Below the pieces are notes generated by a model. That model worked only from the letters and a program-made list of their open reading frames with translations, had not been told where the DNA came from and ran no database searches. This document shows positions 4,031 through 15,351 of a stretch of 30,849 bases of DNA, piece by piece. Each line of letters opens with the position of its first letter. Within the stretch, counting starts at the first letter, position 1. The translations under genes were made by a program, and so were the position numbers. This stretch comes from a virus: the UHGV virus genome UHGV-0006354. One strand, 5' to 3'.

Positions 4031-4258
4031 ATGCGTAATACCGATATCCGTAGTTTTAACACTGATAGCAATGCGCTGGCCGTATTGCTGACCGATGCAA
4101 AAAAAGAAGAGCGTAAAGACCGCGCGCTCGCTGTTTCCATCCGCCTTGAGGCGCTGGCTATCCATATTACCAGAGAGGGTATGAGCGGCACCGAAGCTGC
4201 CGAACTGCTGCGCCGTGAAGCAAACCGCTTTGAGAATGAATCACAGGAGCTGCACTAA
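4031..4258 (+). CDS. Hypothetical early protein
   Basis: 75 aa; AGGAG Shine-Dalgarno; charged helical composition. Confidence 0.55.
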   Translation: MRNTDIRSFNTDSNALAVLLTDAKKEERKDRALAVSIRLEALAIHITREGMSGTEAAELLRREANRFENESQELH

Positions 4259-4479
4259 TGGCCGACGCAATGGATTTAGCACAACTGCGCGAGCAGGAAG
4301 ACCGCGAACGCCACATCAGCAACGCACGCACCCGTATCGCTGCACCTTCCCGTTTTCTTTGCGAGGAATGTGACACACCAATCCCGGAAGCTCGCCGCAT
4401 TGCGATTCCGGGCGTGGCTTTTTGCGTAACCTGCCAGCAAATAGCAGAGCTAAAAAACAAACACTATCGGGGGGTATAA
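4258..4479 (+). CDS. TraR/DksA-family C4 zinc-finger protein
   Basis: 73 aa; CEECDTPIPEARRIAIPGVAFCVTC (CxxC-N17-CxxC); ATG overlaps upstream stop; position immediately before gene A as in P2-like phages. Confidence 0.7.
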   Translation: MADAMDLAQLREQEDRERHISNARTRIAAPSRFLCEECDTPIPEARRIAIPGVAFCVTCQQIAELKNKHYRGV

Positions 4480-4480
4480 A

Positions 4481-6703
4481 TTGGCTGTTCAATTCGCTTA
4501 TCCGTGGAACGTCCCACGGTCGGCAATCTCCAGCCCATACCTTACTTATGAGCAACAGCATCGCCGCGACCGTATGTTCGCGGCTTTGCTGCATGCAAAA
4601 AAGGTGCTTTCTCTCCAGCCCGACTGCGTGCGGTTAGATGTTTATCGCACTGCTGCGGTGCTGGAGCAAAATCAGGGTAGTCAACGAGCCAATGCATTTT
4701 TAATCAACTTCTGCAAAAAGGCATTGCCGCGTCTTGAACTGGTCGCAAAAAAATACGAATGCGCTGGTATCAATAGCAAGGTATCAACCGCTGTTTTTGG
4801 AAGTCATTTTGATACTCAGCAAATGCAATATCTGTCGTCACGCATGGTTAATATGGTCGCCCGATATAACCGTCTCCCGGATATGTCGCGCGCTGATGTT
4901 GACCTGTTGGCCGCTGATATTGCTAATTTCATTCGTGGTGAACTTGCCAACATTAATGACCACGGATTCGGCGAGCTTAAAACGCTGTACACCTGGTATA
5001 TTCGTGCTGGCTTTATTTCCCTCCAATTTAACGTTATCCCACCACATTGGGAGCGGGTTGAAAAAAAATATGTCGGTGCGGATGAAATCGCACCGGCTAT
5101 CGCCAAAATGTTTAACGATGGGTGGTGGCGCGGTCGTTTGCGCCGTGTTGCAGCTACGTGGCGCGAACACCTGCAAATTGCAGTCGGCAACGTCAGTAAG
5201 AAAAAAAACACTTACGCGAGTAAAAACTGCGTGACTGACTGGCGTGAACAAAAGCGCCGCACTCGTGAATTTCTCAAAGGTCTGGATCTCGAAGACGAAG
5301 ACGGCAACCGTATCAGCCTGATTGAAAAATATGATGGCTCAGTTGCTAACCCTGCGATTCGCCGCTGTGAGCTCATGACCCGCATTCGTGGGTTTGAAAA
5401 CATCTGTAATGAGCTCGGTTATGTCGGTGAGTTTTACACTCTAACCGCGCCGTCAAAATATCACGCCACGACTAAAGCCGGTTACCGTAACAGCAAATGG
5501 AGCGGTGCCAGCCCGGCTGACACGCAAAACTATCTAACCGGTATCTGGGCGCGTATCCGTGCCAAACTACATCGGGAAGATGTCCGTATTTTCGGTATTC
5601 GTGTCGCCGAGCCTCATCACGACGGCACTCCACACTGGCACATGCTGATGTTCATGCTGCCGGAAGATGTTGAATATGTTCGCTCCATCGTCCGTAAATA
5701 CGCATGGAAAGAAGACCGCCACGAACTGAAAAGCGATAAATCCAAAAAAGCACGTTTCCACGCCGAGTCCATTGACCCAGAGAAAGGGAGCGCAACCGGC
5801 TATGTTGCTAAATACATTTCAAAAAATATCGACGGTTATGCTCTCGATGGTGAAACCGATGATGAAAGCGGTGAGCTGCTGAAAGAGACAGCCCCCGCCG
5901 TTTCAGCATGGGCTGCGCGCTGGCACATCCGTCAGTTTCAGTTTATCGGTGGTGCGCCGGTGACGGTTTACCGTGAGTTGCGTCGCCTCGCTGATACCGA
6001 AACCGCGCACGGACTGAGCGTTGAGTTTGCCGCCGTCCATGATGCCGCCGACGCTGGTGACTGGGCTGGTTATGTTAATGCTCAGGGTGGGCCGTTTGTC
6101 CGTCGCGATGATTTACAGGTGCGCACACTGTATGAACCGCGTACCGAGCTTAATCAGTACGGTGAGGAAACAGTATGTATTAAGGGAGTCTACGATTCCT
6201 CCATAGGTGCAGGGAGTCCGATTTTAACCCGGCTCACTCAGTGGAAGATTGTTCCGAAGCGTGCTGTTGATTTGGCCGTTGACCTTCAGGACGGCAAAGC
6301 CGTCCCTCGGAGTTCTGTCAATAACTGTACGGGAAGCGAAAGCGATCCACCGATACTGGATTTAACAAAACCACTGAGTCGGCGTGAAAGACGAGAATTG
6401 ACCAACCGACTCAGGAAGCAAAAGCCAGCAGCACGGCGAAAATTCATCCACGGAACGGATGAGCAAAACGCAGCTATAGCTAAAACTATCGACGAGATAC
6501 ATCTGACAACCGGCATTAATATCAGCCGGGGCGAAGCCCTGCACCTGATGGCCGGTGGTAAAAGTTGTTTTGATGGTAAATGGCTACGCGGAACGGCCAA
6601 AGGAGAAATATTTTCCGCAGCACCATCGCATGAGGCTAAAGCTCGGAAAATCCTTAATCGTGTTGCGGCGATGGCTGAAGCATCAAAACCAATACATGAG
6701 TAA
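4481..6703 (+). CDS. A: Rolling-circle replication initiation endonuclease (P2 gpA family)
   Basis: 740 aa; TTG start with N-terminus MAV..AYPWNVPR like P2 A; conserved EPHHDGTPHWHMLMF HUH-type motif and YVAKYISKNIDGY tyrosine motif. Confidence 0.85.
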   Translation: MAVQFAYPWNVPRSAISSPYLTYEQQHRRDRMFAALLHAKKVLSLQPDCVRLDVYRTAAVLEQNQGSQRANAFLINFCKKALPRLELVAKKYECAGINSKVSTAVFGSHFDTQQMQYLSSRMVNMVARYNRLPDMSRADVDLLAADIANFIRGELANINDHGFGELKTLYTWYIRAGFISLQFNVIPPHWERVEKKYVGADEIAPAIAKMFNDGWWRGRLRRVAATWREHLQIAVGNVSKKKNTYASKNCVTDWREQKRRTREFLKGLDLEDEDGNRISLIEKYDGSVANPAIRRCELMTRIRGFENICNELGYVGEFYTLTAPSKYHATTKAGYRNSKWSGASPADTQNYLTGIWARIRAKLHREDVRIFGIRVAEPHHDGTPHWHMLMFMLPEDVEYVRSIVRKYAWKEDRHELKSDKSKKARFHAESIDPEKGSATGYVAKYISKNIDGYALDGETDDESGELLKETAPAVSAWAARWHIRQFQFIGGAPVTVYRELRRLADTETAHGLSVEFAAVHDAADAGDWAGYVNAQGGPFVRRDDLQVRTLYEPRTELNQYGEETVCIKGVYDSSIGAGSPILTRLTQWKIVPKRAVDLAVDLQDGKAVPRSSVNNCTGSESDPPILDLTKPLSRRERRELTNRLRKQKPAARRKFIHGTDEQNAAIAKTIDEIHLTTGINISRGEALHLMAGGKSCFDGKWLRGTAKGEIFSAAPSHEAKARKILNRVAAMAEASKPIHE

Positions 6704-6816: not shown

Positions 6817-6999
6817 ATGGTTGGCGAACATTTCAGCCGAACGCAGCAAAAGTGGGCTTGTGTGCAATTTATTGCCGAGGTATCTCTGATTGCAAACTGC
6901 AAGCCATCAGACTTAAAGCTCGCGCTCACTCTCATTGCAGACCTAGCAAACAGCGAAAATAACGAAACCGAAGATGATAATTTTTATAAGGCTGATTAG
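6817..6999 (+). CDS. LexA-controlled small protein, candidate Tum-like antirepressor module
   Basis: 60 aa; GGGAGG Shine-Dalgarno; directly downstream of the SOS box; ends at TAG in the same frame as the following DinI-like ORF. Confidence 0.5.
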   Translation: MVGEHFSRTQQKWACVQFIAEVSLIANCKPSDLKLALTLIADLANSENNETEDDNFYKAD

Positions 7000-7002
7000 A
7001 TT

Positions 7003-7236
7003 ATGAGAATCAATATCACGTTGGATAAAGAGCAAAAAATTAGTCAGACAACGTTGGATGCACTTGAGGCTGAGCTGTACCGCAATCTTCAACCTATTTA
7101 CCCAAAGACTGCTATCCGCATTCGTAAGGGCTCAGCTAATGGCGTTGAGCTAAGCGGTTTGAAACTGGACGAAGATAAAAAACGAGTGATGGAAATCATG
7201 CAGCAGGTATGGGAGGACGATAGCTGGCTGCATTAA
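7003..7236 (+). CDS. DinI-family protein
   Basis: 77 aa; MRINITLDKEQKIS...ALEAEL...KKRVMEIMQQVWEDDSWLH follows the E. coli DinI pattern (MRIEV..., ...ISEILQETWESADDW). Confidence 0.7.
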   Translation: MRINITLDKEQKISQTTLDALEAELYRNLQPIYPKTAIRIRKGSANGVELSGLKLDEDKKRVMEIMQQVWEDDSWLH

Positions 7237-7240
7237 CAAA

Positions 7241-7307
7241 CGCCGTCGGTGCTGAATCTTGCTTTCAGTGCTGACGGGGTTGAACCACTGGCTCCGCGAG
7301 ACGTTAG
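7241..7307 (+). repeat. Direct repeat copy A (67 bp, about 82 percent identical to copy B)
   Basis: Starts 5 nt after the DinI-like stop; conserved hairpin CTGAA-N7-TTCAG. Confidence 0.6.
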
Positions 7308-7431
7308 TTCTACCTTTCAAACTTTCTCGATGTTTTATTGGTTACACACCGGTGAATAATGGGACGTTACCTTAGAGGATTTTATAGTGGCGCTTTGACA
7401 GCACTGAATAAAATTCATTGAGGGCGATAAT

Positions 7432-7641
7432 ATGCATCGACTACCGGGCGAAATTCCGCAGCACAAAACTAAAAGCATAAAACTGATGGCTATCGTTCAT
7501 CGCTTGCAGACGATAATGGTCAATGAGAATCTGACGCCAGCAGAATTAGTCGGGTGTGCAGAAGTAGTCAGAGATAACTACGGCAAGCTGGACGATATCA
7601 GCAGACCGACACATTACGCACCGCCACCACATCGACCATAG
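7432..7641 (+). CDS. Hypothetical protein
   Basis: 69 aa; GAGGG Shine-Dalgarno; bracketed by repeat copies A and B. Confidence 0.45.
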   Translation: MHRLPGEIPQHKTKSIKLMAIVHRLQTIMVNENLTPAELVGCAEVVRDNYGKLDDISRPTHYAPPPHRP

Positions 7642-7645
7642 ATAA

Positions 7646-7712
7646 CGCCGCCGGAGCTGAAACTCGCTTTCAGGTCTGGCGGGGTTGAACAACGAGCTAC
7701 GCGAGGCGTTAG
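7646..7712 (+). repeat. Direct repeat copy B (67 bp)
   Basis: Starts 5 nt after the 7432-7641 stop; hairpin CTGAAA-N5-TTTCAG with compensatory change relative to copy A. Confidence 0.6.
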
Positions 7713-7774
7713 CTGGTCATAGCGTCGCAAATGCTTTAGCCGTCTGCTGGTTAAATAATTCGAGGTTTTTGGAC

Positions 7775-7969
7775 ATGCAAAATCCCCTTTCATCGAAAAA
7801 AGACCCGTTTGCCGATTGGGCAAAGAATCTGACTTTAATGGCTTTAAATAACGACCTGAGCTCTCGCGAGGTGGAAAGCTACACCGCAAAAATGGTCGGG
7901 CAGGCCAGTAAAGATGAGCTTTCAGCCGTTATCAAACACCTATTAAATCACATCAGAATGCGCAAATAA
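7775..7969 (+). CDS. Hypothetical protein
   Basis: Track ORF 7685-7969 begins at TTG inside repeat B; internal ATG at 7775 (MQNPLSSKK...) gives 64 aa; start uncertain. Confidence 0.35.
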   Translation: MQNPLSSKKDPFADWAKNLTLMALNNDLSSREVESYTAKMVGQASKDELSAVIKHLLNHIRMRK

Positions 7970-7984
7970 GAGGAGCTATATAAT

Positions 7985-8086
7985 ATGTTATCTCTCGTTT
8001 ATGAAAATCCGTGGACGACGGTTTTTCTGCTGATTGTTGCCAGTTGTTGTCTCAACAGTATTATTGGCGCATTGCGCAACAAGTGA
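7985..8086 (+). CDS. Small hydrophobic peptide (33 aa), single predicted transmembrane helix
   Basis: MLSLVYENPWTTVFLLIVASCCLNSIIGALRNK; AGGAG Shine-Dalgarno 8 nt upstream; below the ORF-track size cut-off; terminator follows. Confidence 0.35.
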   Translation: MLSLVYENPWTTVFLLIVASCCLNSIIGALRNK

Positions 8087-8108
8087 CCTCAATAAATCTG
8101 ATTCAAAT

Positions 8109-8133
8109 CGGCACCAAAAATGCCGGTTTTTTT
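8109..8133 (+). terminator. Rho-independent terminator ending the early/SOS region before cos
   Basis: CGGCA-CCAAAAA-TGCCG hairpin followed by seven T (8127-8133). Confidence 0.6.
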
Positions 8134-8293
8134 ATGCCATTTTTCCGCGAATTTCCCGTTTTTTAGCTATGCATGCAACAGGTGCATGGTTTTGCATGCG
8201 TCAGGCTTGCCCGTTCAGGCCGTACGCCACCAGAGCTGGCGCAGAACCAGAGTGGTCATGCAACTGCATTAAAACCGCCCCATAAAGCGGGCA

Positions 8294-8312
8294 GGCGTGG
8301 CGGGGAAAGCAT
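8294..8312. other. cos cohesive-end site (P2/186 type)
   Basis: GGCGTGGCGGGGAAAGCAT, matching the 19-nt P2/186 cohesive end as I recall it (P2 GGCGAGGCGGGGAAAGCAC); lies between the replication module and portal gene as expected. Confidence 0.6.
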
Positions 8313-8459
8313 TGCGCGCCAGCGGTGGTGCGTAATAATAAAAATTATCGTCTGATCGCGTCGTAATGGCGCGCGCGTGGTTGCTGTCGGCTCGTTGGTG
8401 GTCTGGTGTGGTCGTGCGCGCGTGGCGCGTCTGAGGCGTGATGCTGGGTGTGTATGGAA

Positions 8460-8482
8460 AAGCCGCTTAGAGACAGCGGCTT
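8460..8482 (-). terminator. Hairpin downstream of the minus-strand cargo gene (terminator-like, no U-tract)
   Basis: AAGCCGCT-N7-AGCGGCTT, 8-bp stem. Confidence 0.3.
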
Positions 8483-8533
8483 AACAATAGTGGTGGGATT
8501 TAAACTGCTAATAATGTTTCTACAAACATTAAC

Positions 8534-9517
8534 CTAATTTACATGTATGTAGAGTTCACTGTCACTAGACCAGTCGGGGCACTCTAAAGCAAGCCCAAAC
8601 TGCTTGTATATTTCATCAATGACTAATGTTATCTCAAGATAATCATCAAAACCTGTAATGCGTTGATCATTGAATTTTTCATAAAGATTCTGAAATGCAG
8701 CTCCTAACTCTGATAATTGATTCCTTATTTTTGAGTTGGATAGTGTAAGGGCTAGTTTTGGGTCGTATTCATTAATATTGATGTTTAGAGAATGGACGTA
8801 ACCTATCGCATAAGCATAGGAGTTGATAATTAGCTTGAAGCGTTTTTTTGCTTCAAGATACATTTCATTCAGAGAAATATTGCCTCTTTTATAGTTCAGA
8901 GTGAGATTTTCAATCTCGTCAGACACTTCATTTACAACAGTATCAAGATTCTCTAGAAATAAATCGATAGTCTCTTGAGGGGCTGACCACGAAGACATGT
9001 AATTAGCAAGATATTCAGACCATGCACGAGTGGCTGTGATAAGCAGCGCGTCGCCATACTCGTTGACTGTAAAGTTTTGGGCTAAGCATGTTAGTAAGTT
9101 TTTTTCATGTACGTGCACTAACTCATGGTGAATGCGATGGATGACTGCGCGGTATCCTTCTTCATTTAATTTCAGGAAGCTACCATCATTAAAAAGCTCA
9201 CCAAAAAAATCAATAGATAGCACAAGGGTATATTCTTCACATAGCCCATCGCTGCCAATTTTTGTTACTAATTGCCCGACGGCTGCGCCCTGTTTGCTAT
9301 TGGTAAATGAACTAGGGGATTTGTGTTGGTAAATGGAAGTCACATTTTGAAGAGCTTCACTGAAATTATAGGAGACAACCACGCATTTTAATTTTGAGAT
9401 ATCAAGATTGAGATTTTTTGTTAAGACTCGAATAGCTTCTAGCGTGAAGTTACCGATATTATTTGCTTCTTGCTCAGTAGTGAAACCTTCGAGGGTTATT
9501 TTAAAATCAGTTTCCAA
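8534..9517 (-). CDS. AT-rich cargo gene: HExxH-motif (zinc-metallopeptidase-like) protein of unknown function, inserted between cos and portal gene Q
   Basis: 327 aa, TTG start with GGAG Shine-Dalgarno; HELVH at residues 131-135; no signal peptide or transmembrane segment; plausible sigma70 promoter (TTGAAG-17-TATAGT on minus strand, plus about 9557-9585). Confidence 0.8.
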   Translation of the reverse strand: METDFKITLEGFTTEQEANNIGNFTLEAIRVLTKNLNLDISKLKCVVVSYNFSEALQNVTSIYQHKSPSSFTNSKQGAAVGQLVTKIGSDGLCEEYTLVLSIDFFGELFNDGSFLKLNEEGYRAVIHRIHHELVHVHEKNLLTCLAQNFTVNEYGDALLITATRAWSEYLANYMSSWSAPQETIDLFLENLDTVVNEVSDEIENLTLNYKRGNISLNEMYLEAKKRFKLIINSYAYAIGYVHSLNININEYDPKLALTLSNSKIRNQLSELGAAFQNLYEKFNDQRITGFDDYLEITLVIDEIYKQFGLALECPDWSSDSELYIHVN

Positions 9518-9615
9518 GATATTAATCTCCGCGCCTATTGTTTTGATATCTGATGCACTATAGCTTTCGCCGATTGCATCTTCAATGATGAGCGCAGAGA
9601 TTGAGGCGGCCTAAG

Positions 9616-10662
9616 TTATTCCGGGTTGTCGAGGGTGTACTCTTTGAACCTGATGACCTCCATGCCGAGCCAGTCGTTTACCTCCCTGAACCTGTCCTGC
9701 AGGGGTGACAGCTCGTTACGCACGAATACCTTTGCCACCTTCTCAACGTCGCCGAGTGAGCCGATATTCTCGGGCTTGCCGCCCATGAGCTGGAACGGCA
9801 CGCGGTGCGCGTCCATCAGGTCGGCGGCGCTGGCTTTCTTAATGTTGAAAAAGTCATCCTTTGTGGCGACCTCGCTCAGTGGCACGATTTTGATGCCGTC
9901 CGGTTTTCCGCCGGGGGCGTAGAAAAACAGGTTCTTAAAGTTGCCGAGTCCCTTCGAGTTACGCATCGCCTCGCGCAGCGATTCGACGTCGGTCGCACTT
10001 TGCGCCGGGTCAGTCACATACATGATGTAGCCTGCGTGCGCGCCGTTCTGATAATACTTGCGGCGGAACAGCGTCGCGGATTCATTCAGCCAGGCGGAAT
10101 TAAGCGCGCTGAGATATTCCGGCAGACCGTAAATCTCCTGATTAATGTCGGGCTCCAGCAGGTGAAACACGGTATCAGGCGCGAACTCGTGCGGCTGGGT
10201 GAAGTTTTCCACAAACCAGAAAATCGAATCGTCGACTCCGCGTCGGGTGTATTTGGCTGGCGAGGCCAGCAGTTTGATTAACTGGCCGGTGACGCTGTGG
10301 CGCTGCTCAAGAAAGGCGTTACCGAACACCAGATAATCGAGCGCAAAGCGGCTGAAATCCTGACGGGATAACAACGGGTGCGGAATGTAGGTGCTCGCGA
10401 GCACGTTACGCTTAACATAAATTGGCGAGCTGTGATGCACGGCAGAGCGCAGGCTCTTTGCCAGCCCTGAGAAGCTGACCGGCGGCTCGTACCATTTGCC
10501 GTTACTGATGCACTCGACGTAATCCAGAATGTCGCGCTTATCGAGTACCGGCACCGGCTCGCCGAAGGTGAACGCTGTCGTTTTTGGCGGTGCGCTGGCG
10601 GTCAGTTGTTGTGGTTTGCTGGCCTTTTGTGCGTTGGCTTTACGGGATTTTTGTTTACCCAT
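9616..10662 (-). CDS. Q: Portal protein (P2 gpQ family)
   Basis: 348 aa (P2 Q 344 aa); Lys-rich N-terminus MGKQKSRKANAQKASK; position between cos and terminase. Confidence 0.9.
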   Translation of the reverse strand: MGKQKSRKANAQKASKPQQLTASAPPKTTAFTFGEPVPVLDKRDILDYVECISNGKWYEPPVSFSGLAKSLRSAVHHSSPIYVKRNVLASTYIPHPLLSRQDFSRFALDYLVFGNAFLEQRHSVTGQLIKLLASPAKYTRRGVDDSIFWFVENFTQPHEFAPDTVFHLLEPDINQEIYGLPEYLSALNSAWLNESATLFRRKYYQNGAHAGYIMYVTDPAQSATDVESLREAMRNSKGLGNFKNLFFYAPGGKPDGIKIVPLSEVATKDDFFNIKKASAADLMDAHRVPFQLMGGKPENIGSLGDVEKVAKVFVRNELSPLQDRFREVNDWLGMEVIRFKEYTLDNPE

Positions 10663-13529: not shown

Positions 13530-14597
13530 ATGCGCCCGGAAACCCGTTTTAAGTTCAATGCCTATCTGACCCGCGTCGCTGAGCTGAACGGCATCAGCAC
13601 TGATGACGTCAGTAAAAAATTCACCGTCGAGCCGTCCGTCACGCAAACGCTGATGAACAAAGTGCAGGAGTCATCCGCGTTTCTGCAGACGATTAACATT
13701 CTGCCGGTCGCAGAAATGAAGGGTGAGAAAATCGGCGTCGGTGTGACCGGTACTATCGCCAGCACGACCGACACCTCGGGCGATGATGAGCGTAAGACCG
13801 CAGACTTCACCGCGCTTGAGTCCAACAAGTACGAGTGCGACCAGATTAACTTTGACTTCCATCTGAAATATAAAACCCTCGACCTGTGGGCGCGTTTTCA
13901 GGACTTTCAGCGCCGCATCCGTGACGCCATTGTTAAGCGTCAGGCGCTCGATTTCATCATGGCCGGTTTTAACGGTACCACCCGCGCCGCCACCTCTGAC
14001 CGCACCAAAAATCCGATGCTGCAGGATGTAGCCATCGGCTGGCTGCAGAAATACCGCAACGAAGCCCCGACGCGTGTGATGAGCAATATCACCGATGCTG
14101 ACGGTAAGGTCGTTTCGGCAGTGATTCGCGTCGGTAAAAACGGCGACTATGAGAACCTCGACGCGCTGGTGATGGATGCTACCAACAACCTGATTGACGA
14201 GGTTTATCAGGATGACCCGAAACTCGTTGCCATCGTTGGCCGTAAGCTGCTGGCCGACAAATATTTCCCACTGGTGAACAAGCCGCAAGAAAACAGCGAA
14301 GCGCTCGCGGCAGATATCATCATCAGCCAGAAGCGAATCGGCAACCTGCCTGCTGTGCGTGTGCCGTACTTCCCGGCGAATGCCGTGTTAGTGACAACGC
14401 TGGAAAACCTCTCTATCTATTTCATGGATGAGAGCCACCGCCGCAGCATTGATGAAAACCCGAAAAAAGACCGCGTGGAAAACTACGAGTCAATGAATAT
14501 CGACTATGTGGTCGAGGCGTATGCCGCCGGGTGTCTGCTGGAAAACATCACCCTGGGCGATTTCACCGCACCTGCAGCACCGGAAAGCGGAGAGTAA
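13530..14597 (+). CDS. N: Major capsid protein (P2 gpN family)
   Basis: 355 aa (P2 N 357 aa); synteny O-N-M. Confidence 0.9.
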   Translation: MRPETRFKFNAYLTRVAELNGISTDDVSKKFTVEPSVTQTLMNKVQESSAFLQTINILPVAEMKGEKIGVGVTGTIASTTDTSGDDERKTADFTALESNKYECDQINFDFHLKYKTLDLWARFQDFQRRIRDAIVKRQALDFIMAGFNGTTRAATSDRTKNPMLQDVAIGWLQKYRNEAPTRVMSNITDADGKVVSAVIRVGKNGDYENLDALVMDATNNLIDEVYQDDPKLVAIVGRKLLADKYFPLVNKPQENSEALAADIIISQKRIGNLPAVRVPYFPANAVLVTTLENLSIYFMDESHRRSIDENPKKDRVENYESMNIDYVVEAYAAGCLLENITLGDFTAPAAPESGE

Positions 14598-14601
14598 GCC
14601 C

Positions 14602-15351
14602 ATGACGAGCCCCGCACAGCGTCACATGATGCGGGTCTCGGCCTCTCAAGCCGCGCAGCGGGAACAAGCCCCGCTGCGCCATGCAACCGCCTACGAGCAG
14701 ATGCTGGTAAAGCTGGCCGATGACCGCCGCACGTTGAAAACCATCCGTTCAAACGAACTGAAAGCCGCGAAAAAGCGTGAGCTGCTGCCGTTCTATGCGC
14801 CGTGGGTCGCCGGTGTGCTGGCTGATGGCCGTGGTGCGCAGGATGACATTCTGATGACAGTCATGCTGTGGCGTCTCGATGCCGGTGATATCGCTGGCGC
14901 GCTGGAAATTGCGCCATACGCGCTGAAGCACGGCCTCACCTCTGACTATCGCCGCACGACACCTTACATGCTGGTTGAGGAGGTGGCGCTTGCCGCGCTG
15001 CGCCTGCGCGATGCCGGTGAGCCTGTCGACCTCGCATTACTGCTGACCACCCTTAGCCTGACCGACGGCGCTGACGTTCCCGATATGGTGCGCGCTCGAC
15101 TGCATAAGGTGACCGGTCTAACCCTGCGCGATGCCGGTCAGAGCGCCGAAGCACGGGCACAGTTTCAGCGCGCGATGCAGCTCGACCGCAATGCCGGTGT
15201 GCGCAAAGAGATTGAGCGACTGGAGCGGGCATTGAAGCCTAAGCCCGATGCCGCGCCCCGTAAAACGACTAAACCGCGCACGCGCAAACCTGCCACCAAA
15301 CCGGCGGCAAAGCGCGGGCGTCCACCAAAGGCGGTAAAAACCGCCGGTTAA
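14602..15351 (+). CDS. M: Terminase endonuclease/small subunit (P2 gpM family)
   Basis: 249 aa from ATG 14602 (track ORF 14506 is an upstream extension overlapping N); basic Pro/Lys-rich C-terminus. Confidence 0.85.
   Translation: MTSPAQRHMMRVSASQAAQREQAPLRHATAYEQMLVKLADDRRTLKTIRSNELKAAKKRELLPFYAPWVAGVLADGRGAQDDILMTVMLWRLDAGDIAGALEIAPYALKHGLTSDYRRTTPYMLVEEVALAALRLRDAGEPVDLALLLTTLSLTDGADVPDMVRARLHKVTGLTLRDAGQSAEARAQFQRAMQLDRNAGVRKEIERLERALKPKPDAAPRKTTKPRTRKPATKPAAKRGRPPKAVKTAG

Follow-up and report, generated by a model that had tools for sequence, protein, structure and literature searches.

Phage P2 packages monomeric circles. The packaging signals of P2 and P4 share a 55-bp cos core (Ziermann & Calendar 1990, as cited in PMC3931495, PMC5694545 and PMC9594776), and the literature describes P4 as using the P2 terminase together with this core cos signal. 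A requirement that extends beyond the 55-bp core fits the results obtained with cosmids, in which transduction reached 0.035 with longer cos flanks versus 1.7e-5 with the short signal, a difference of about 2000-fold (PMC9594776). In the genome of phage 186 (NC_001317), nt 1-19 are annotated as 'cos; cohesive end', and these are followed by the terminator tW and by the portal gene on the minus strand. The cos-proximal position between gpA and gpQ was reported to be a hotspot of variable and often defensive genes in P2-like phages (Rousset et al. 2022, PMC9122126), and the same variable-gene hotspot was described by Dodd & Egan 1996 and Nakayama 1999, as cited in PMC5694545. In phage lambda, cosB contains the TerS sites R3, R2 and R1 and the IHF site I1.

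Here we compared these systems with the cos region of the viral genome UHGV-0006354. The window is the whole stretch of DNA that was analysed, 30,849 nt in length; all coordinates refer to it, and negative and positive offsets are counted from the top-strand nick. With a probability of about 85%, comparative analysis supports the joint reading that the site is the working cos of a 186-like (Eganvirus) prophage, in which the TGCAT copies are likely recognition sites and a G+T-skewed tract is accessory.

The cos region is located in a 186-like prophage with P2-type terminase genes

The whole window represents a 186-like prophage that is 87-97% identical to Eganvirus phages and prophages. The closest database record, vB_EcoM-613R3, was deposited as a phage genome and is 97% identical. 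Full-length ORFs with strong family matches were found for the integrase, replication protein A, portal, TerL, scaffold, capsid and TerS (Table 1). The domain matches of TerL included PF06056, PF03237 and PF17289, and the real start codon of TerS is probably located downstream of 14506, which would place the gene at about 14600-15351. The gpP-like TerL, with its Terminase_5 N-terminus, and the gpM-like TerS represent the cognate terminase genes of a P2-type system. As in 186, the cos region has replication gene A on one side and the portal-terminase operon, which runs leftward, on the other. Across 5,426 complete E. coli genomes, the cos region was present in 331, and the arrangement of cos, accessory gene and portal was recovered with a query coverage of at least 80% in 26, the best match, from E. 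coli PKF8, being 99.5% identical over 8100-9620.

Table 1 Coordinates of the features of the cos region and of the neighbouring genes.
Feature	Position	Strand	Basis or description
Replication gpA	4481-6703	+	
Intrinsic terminator of the rightward accessory operon (DinI/Tum-like genes)	8105-8137	+	9-bp stem and T run
Three direct TGCAT repeats, candidate cosB-like terminase recognition sites	8170-8197	+	Positional conservation
Inverted TGCAT copy (ATGCA on the plus strand)	8258-8262	-	At -36, beside the proximal repeat
55-bp conserved cos core, TGCATTAAAACCGCCCC..AAGCGGGCA followed by the 19-mer and TGCGCGC	8265-8319	+	Common to P2, 186 and P4
cosN, 19-nt cohesive end GGCGTGGCGGGGAAAGCAT	8294-8312	+	Identity to the annotated 186 cos
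AT-rich block AATAATAAAAATTATC	8333-8348 (+39..+54)		Compositionally conserved, left-arm side
G+T-skewed tract, non-coding	8351-8455	+	6 A in 105 nt, 73% G+T
Intrinsic terminator, homologue of 186 tW	8458-8487	-	Aligns with the annotated 186 tW (nt 164-187); terminator-like hit; inverted repeat
327-aa ORF with HELVH at residue 131 (HExxH gene)	8534-9517	-	Translation and motif
Portal protein gene (186 W / P2 Q homologue)	9616-10662	-	PF04860; colinear with 186
Terminase large subunit (P2 gpP homologue), N-terminal helix-turn-helix	10664-12433	-	Terminase_6N, Terminase_6C, Terminase_5, HTH_23
Terminase small subunit (P2 gpM homologue)	14506-15351	+	PF05944 Phage_term_smal, E = 4e-41, ORF residues 67-193

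The terminator of the rightward accessory operon aligns with the right end of 186, where t95b is annotated, and we read it as the probable counterpart of t95b and as the boundary of the cos region on the right-arm side. On the left-arm side, the tW homologue is predicted to stop transcripts of the HExxH insertion as well as those of the portal operon. Beside cos, the right arm (6817-8088, plus strand) contains a DinI/Tum-like gene (7003-7236, PF06183), along with several small ORFs matching phrog_1993, phrog_11386 and phrog_2454, which have no assigned function. The placement of these genes parallels that of the SOS-controlled tum operon of 186.

The cohesive end is the 186 variant of the P2/186 type

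The 19-mer at 8294-8312, which the original prediction had recognized as the P2/186 cohesive end, is identical to nt 1-19 of 186. It was the sole match to this sequence in the window even when up to three mismatches were allowed, and none of 100 shuffled sequences contained a match. Comparison with the published cos sequences showed that the motif is conserved with both P2 and 186: the P2 cohesive end is identical to the window at 17 of the 19 positions, and in the overhangs of P2 and P4, unlike in that of the window, position 5 is A and position 19 is C. The window sequence has the form GGCG(A/T)GGCGGGGAAAGCA(C/T) of a P2/186-type cohesive end, which is 19 nt long and G+C-rich. The PSP3 record describes its own cos as 'identical to 186 cos', and the deposited genomes of SEN1, EtG and PSP3 have their termini at the position equivalent to the window cos, with the SEN1 and EtG matches ending at the last base of each record, corresponding to window 8293. 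By homology, the top strand would be nicked 5' of 8294 and the bottom strand after 8312, leaving 5' overhangs.

When the right-end and left-end sequences of 186 were joined, the junction was colinear with window 8100-8487 (~390 bp), from the right-arm terminator to tW. This close alignment ran through the t95b counterpart, the TGCAT repeats, the core, the AT block, the G+T tract and tW, with minor substitutions in the spacer and in the G+T tract. The gene order was the same on both sides of cos, but the right-arm accessory genes were different. The earlier claim that the site fixes the packaging origin was supported. Comparison at the sequence level confirms the site as a P2/186-type (Peduoviridae) cos, specifically the 186 variant; the cos finding is correct, and its biology is already known.

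The published 55-bp core appears to map onto exactly 8265-8319, and the core architecture of the P2 and P4 cos is like that of the window, with TGCAT at about -124, -111, -101 and -29. Inside the core, the proximal TGCAT occupies 8265-8269, and the nicks are flanked near-symmetrically by GCGGGCA and TGCGCGC. In an ungapped alignment of 109 unique loci, the columns from -36 to +26 were conserved at or above 70-90%, in agreement with the published core.

Direct TGCAT repeats are conserved in position on the right-arm side of the nick

A pattern scan of IMG/VR for the 19-mer returned 120 loci, all of which were anchored on the top-strand nick, and the 109 unique sequences among them were aligned without gaps. 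TGCAT peaked at -124, -111, -101 and -29 in these 109 loci, and the copies in the window are located at exactly these modal positions, three of them distal (8170-8174, 8183-8187 and 8193-8197) and the fourth, at 8265, inside the 55-bp core. The triple TGCAT pattern was unique in the window and occurred in none of 100 shuffles. At least two GCAT copies were found between -140 and -90 in 108 of the 109 loci, compared with almost none in six control intervals, and successive copies were 10 or 13 bp apart. Of 105 distinct upstream sequences, 100 had a GCAT at -100, 87 at -110, 57 at -123 and 104 at -28, with a tolerance of 2 nt in each case, and the -124 copy was present in only about half of the loci. 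The inverted copy beside the proximal repeat was also frequent, with ATGCA at -36 in 66 and TGCA at -35 in 88 of the 109 unique loci.

The surroundings of the repeats were far less constant. The spacer from -95 to -40 was 37% identical between pairs of loci versus 84% for the core, the DNA upstream of about -126 was unrelated between loci, and the TGCAT repeats were kept regardless of the upstream gene and its orientation. All four GCAT positions were present in each of the 18 P4-like satellites, and the repeat geometry held in about 105 distinct P2/186/P4-type loci and in the Ralstonia phage RSA1. The distal TGCAT array, which the window possesses, was derived as a mark of this cos type in the present analysis and not from the literature; a search of the open-access literature returned no paper linking TGCAT with cos. 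Since their position is conserved across phages and satellites, the TGCAT repeats appear to be better candidates for recognition elements than the G+T tract.

This segment had originally been described as an inverted repeat at 8171-8198 with a 12-nt spacer. An inverted repeat does exist here, but its arms are GCATGCAA (8171-8178) and TTGCATGC (8192-8199), and the spacer is 13 nt. According to our own arithmetic, chance could produce an 8-bp inverted repeat with so short a spacer in 31 kb, and the significance of this one comes only from its conservation. The palindrome is an apparent one, because the self-complementary TGCA lies within the direct TGCAT repeats (two of the three), and the inverted symmetry is missing where the copies read TGCATT or TGCATC.

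Distal and proximal repeats change together between lineages

Repeats near cos were also found in other phages. RSA1 has GCAT at -128, -109, -99 and -28, while phiCTX and Smp131 carry (C/T)GCAG repeats distally and GTGCAGAAAAAG proximally, and HP1 has a different repeat, CACGGAAA. In the record of phiCTX, repeats and an IHF site are annotated close to cos. Another scan, for which the core pattern was built from RSA1 and Smp131, returned 50 loci. In 36 of these, with overhangs ending in AGACGAG or AGACGAT, GCAG was located at -111, -101, -37 and -28 and no GCAT recurred in position; 13 of the 50 had GCAT at -123, -110, -100 and -28, and two loci (L146 and L167) were mixed, with proximal GCAG and distal GCAT. 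GCAT was found in the enterobacterial and Ralstonia P2-like phages and GCAG in the Xanthomonadales/phiCTX-type lineage, at equal distances from the nick (-111, -101 and -28). Such a joint change of the distal and proximal motifs is as would be expected if a single DNA-binding specificity acted at a number of fixed sites. When the helix-turn-helix of TerL was compared between the GCAT and GCAG lineages, for which few GCAT-type relatives with TerL were available, no clear specificity switch was seen, and the recognition helix was nearly invariant.

The G+T-skewed tract is conserved in composition where the portal gene adjoins cos

On the left-arm side of the nick, the original prediction had described a span at 8340-8455 as almost devoid of A and rich in GTGG/GCGCG repeats. 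The skew is genuine: this 116-nt span has 70% G+T, a value that places it within the top 63 when all 30,733 windows of equal length are ranked. The poverty in A does not extend to 8340-8348, which is A-rich because it is the tail of the conserved AT block. GTGG was not enriched, as estimated from base composition, and among the repeats only GCGCGCGTGG stands out, with exactly two copies that start at 8371 and 8416, 45 bp apart; the first copy is not conserved in 186. Repeats within the tract did not keep their positions between loci.

Two blocks of the tract, TCTGATCGCGTCG (8351-8363) and GGCGCGTCTGAGGCG (8424-8438), were conserved among Escherichia, Salmonella and Klebsiella helper phages. 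The first corresponds to the helper-phage block TCTGAGCGCGTCG at +58..+70, and the terminator was also common to the helper phages. The composition of the tract was conserved where the portal homologue was directly adjacent (about +200), with a fraction of A near 0.12 in the segment from +45 to +165; of 88 phage loci, 76 had A at or below 0.2. In P2, a G+T-rich tract is likewise located ahead of the tQ terminator.

We found no minus-strand ORF of at least 20 aa overlapping 8280-8500, and the plus strand contained short ORFs only. Small hypothetical minus-strand CDSs are annotated across the tract in SEN1 (45-176) and in vB_EcoM-613R3 (4105-4290); these calls are probably spurious, given that the minus strand is T-poor and has few stop codons. 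Folding of the tract as RNA gave z-scores of -1.1 and +0.1 for the two strands, with no structure signal, and an Rfam scan of 7600-9000 returned none at the gathering score, the sub-threshold hits RcsR1, mir-214 and mir-998 being chance hits. The minus-strand transcript of the tract would be C-rich (44% C versus 21% G) and weakly structured, and it is a matter of speculation that such a C-rich read-through transcript serves as a Rho-dependent back-up terminator behind tW. A Chi-like reading of the tract was rejected, as GTTGGTGG matches at 7 of 8 positions only and, by reasoning, has the wrong orientation for RecBCD entering at the left end.

Sharp junctions outline the cos module

The AT block, which the original prediction had not described, was conserved in composition in phages and satellites alike, with a mean A+T of 0.92 at +40..+49 in 112 unique loci, and it is possibly a bend or melting element of cos. 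Foreign DNA meets the cos module at two sharp junctions, one at about -126 and the other at about +26 to +75. The presence of sharp junctions on both sides suggests that hotspots for accessory genes flank cos on both sides. The recombination end-points also appear to outline the functional packaging signal, which would span ~175 bp (window 8170-8348).

Other elements of the flanks were less widespread. A 15-nt inverted repeat around cosN (8228-8242 and 8316-8330) is 87% complementary and shows a compensatory A/G and T/C difference from 186. It was rejected as a feature of the family, as the arms matched at 6.2 of 15 positions versus 6.5 in partner-shuffled controls (107 loci), and it is probably specific to the lineage of the window. 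A CAG-NN-CTGG palindrome near -62 is semi-conserved and, by eye, more widespread than the 15-nt repeat. On the minus strand, 8275-8294 (CCGCCCC-ATAAA-GCGGGC and then AAAA, as read on the plus strand) scores as an intrinsic-terminator-like hairpin with a T run, located at the nick. This is the most conserved part of the core, and by eye its short inverted repeat is retained in 186, RSA1 and Smp131 although the bases differ.

A model for packaging at the 186-type cos

The literature and homology suggest that, after induction and replication, TerL and TerS would make two nicks 19 bp apart, at 8294 on the top strand and at 8312 on the bottom strand, so that the virion DNA ends would be 5'-protruding GGCGTGGCGGGGAAAGCAT. 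The left arm would then start with the G+T tract, followed by tW, the HExxH accessory gene and the portal gene. The comparative data point to a functional cos module from about 8170 to about 8348 (-124 to +54), which would be composed of three TGCAT copies (-124, -111 and -101), a spacer of about 70 bp that is fixed in length but not conserved, the 55-bp core with the -29 TGCAT, and the AT block at about +40 to +50. The TGCAT copies would likely be terminase recognition sites, as an analogue of cosB, and the protein that reads them may be TerS or else TerL, through its N-terminal helix-turn-helix. Their fixed spacing, with 72 bp between the -101 and -29 copies, suggests wrapping or looping of the DNA. 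The G+T tract would be a helper-phage-specific spacer between cos and the terminator of the portal operon and would not be required for recognition. The sites are located on the right-arm side, and by analogy with lambda, in which cosB is on the arm that enters first, the right end may be packaged first; the papers citing Chattoraj & Inman 1974 gave no P2-specific detail on packaging direction.

The TGCAT pattern resembles both the R sites of the lambda cosB and the models in which TerS wraps DNA (PMC4856287). The two cos regions are also alike in having a partly two-fold symmetric nicking site, an asymmetric array of short repeats and an AT-rich or bent element nearby. This likeness is an analogy in outline only, and the window cos is not a member of the lambda family. 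The overhang is 12 nt in lambda and 19 nt in the window, the TGCAT repeats are unrelated in sequence to those of lambda, and one copy adjoins cosN while three are located about 70 bp away. In the window, the repeats and the genes for the portal and TerL are on opposite arms, whereas the lambda R sites are on the terminase-gene arm. A lambda-type cosB, in which TerS motifs flank an IHF site on the terminase-gene arm, was not found in the window, and no IHF consensus with up to one mismatch occurred within 8100-8500.

The G+T tract at 8340-8455, with its GTGG/GCGCG repeats, could instead be the TerS-binding cosB on the left-arm side, as in lambda. The tract adjoins cosN, its composition is conserved wherever the portal is adjacent, the two blocks are shared by helper phages of three genera, GCGCGCGTGG occurs twice, and cosmids with longer cos flanks were transduced better. 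But P4 uses the P2 terminase and has no such tract, its left-arm DNA being unrelated past +26. Of the 18 P4-like satellites, 14 lack the tract too. It is also missing from at least seven P2-like loci (L019, L029, L035, L061, L079, L092 and L122), which are prophage loci not known as viable phages and in which unrelated DNA starts at +26 and no G+T tract is located anywhere before the portal gene. These absences indicate that the tract is not needed for recognition, and its repeated words are neither conserved in 186 nor kept in position. The claim that these repeats are recognition elements for the terminase small subunit was therefore not sustained; the comparative evidence makes a recognition role for the tract unlikely, and we consider a left-arm cosB of this kind to be quite improbable. 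The two conserved helper blocks mean that the tract may still add to packaging efficiency.

A different role could also be proposed for the TGCAT/GCATGC words, namely that they are transcription signals, either a terminator hairpin for the rightward accessory operon or promoter and operator elements for the variable neighbours. On the plus strand, CATGCA-ACAGG-TGCATG followed by GTTTTG (8172-8188) is terminator-like; downstream of psu in P4, the first two copies pair as an 8-bp hairpin with TTT after it; and the old-tin transcripts of P2 start about 150 nt from the nick, with a promoter that overlaps the repeats. Such a role is very improbable in our judgement, as the hairpin is impossible in the many loci with TGCATT or TGCATC, where direct repetition and position are what is conserved, and the repeats persist whatever the upstream gene or its orientation. 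A proper terminator is already present 40 bp upstream (8105-8137), and transcription signals would give no reason for the joint switch from GCAT to GCAG at the distal sites and at -28. That the cos is a relic, in a defective prophage whose site is never cut, is unlikely. Nothing positive favours a relic; the window is a prophage known from sequence alone, and the arrangement of cos, accessory gene and portal was recovered at 80% coverage or more in only the 26 E. coli genomes mentioned above. The intact core does not differ from the functional 186 cos, the seven genes from the integrase to TerS are full length, and the nearest record was deposited as a phage genome, all of which argue against a relic.

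Tentatively, and at odds well short of even, the packaging signal of the P2 family may be a bipartite module of ~175 bp, in which TGCAT, three times distally and once at -29, sets the specificity, its last base switches jointly, and P4-type satellites copy only that module. If this is true and was absent from the 1990 deletion study, it would define the long-unmapped cosB of P2-like phages, and it would open a direct route to re-targeting P2/P4 transducing particles. The comparative map, in which the TGCAT array, the core and the AT block are conserved and the G+T tract is dispensable, offers a concrete hypothesis for DNA recognition by the P2-type terminase. It would also be practical for minimal P2/P4/186 cosmids and for cos knock-outs in the production of transducing particles.

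The HExxH gene is predicted to be the first gene of the left arm

The location of cos fixes the physical ends of the packaged genome for annotation, and it puts the HExxH gene first in the left arm, in the known cos-proximal hotspot. The ORF is included in ~1.1 kb of AT-rich DNA (about 29-45% G+C in 100-nt windows) between the stop codon of the portal gene and tW. Homology to 186 stops just past the tW homologue, and the low-G+C segment is an insertion relative to 186. Because the window is colinear with the cos-tW-portal order of 186, the ORF would be the first gene of the packaged left arm, which agrees with the earlier placement of this gene at the extreme left end of the packaged genome.

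As in the P2 cos-proximal hotspot, the HExxH ORF is located between replication gene A and the portal gene and adjoins cos. It differs from the defence genes of that hotspot in having no match to a known defence family. Searches against Pfam, PADLOC and NCBIfam returned no match and no homology to known defence families, and the only family match was phrog_11743, which has no assigned function. Its placement in the published hotspot makes the ORF a candidate for an uncharacterised defence or exclusion gene. A promoter-like site for the region of the HExxH ORF was observed at 9585-9557 on the minus strand.
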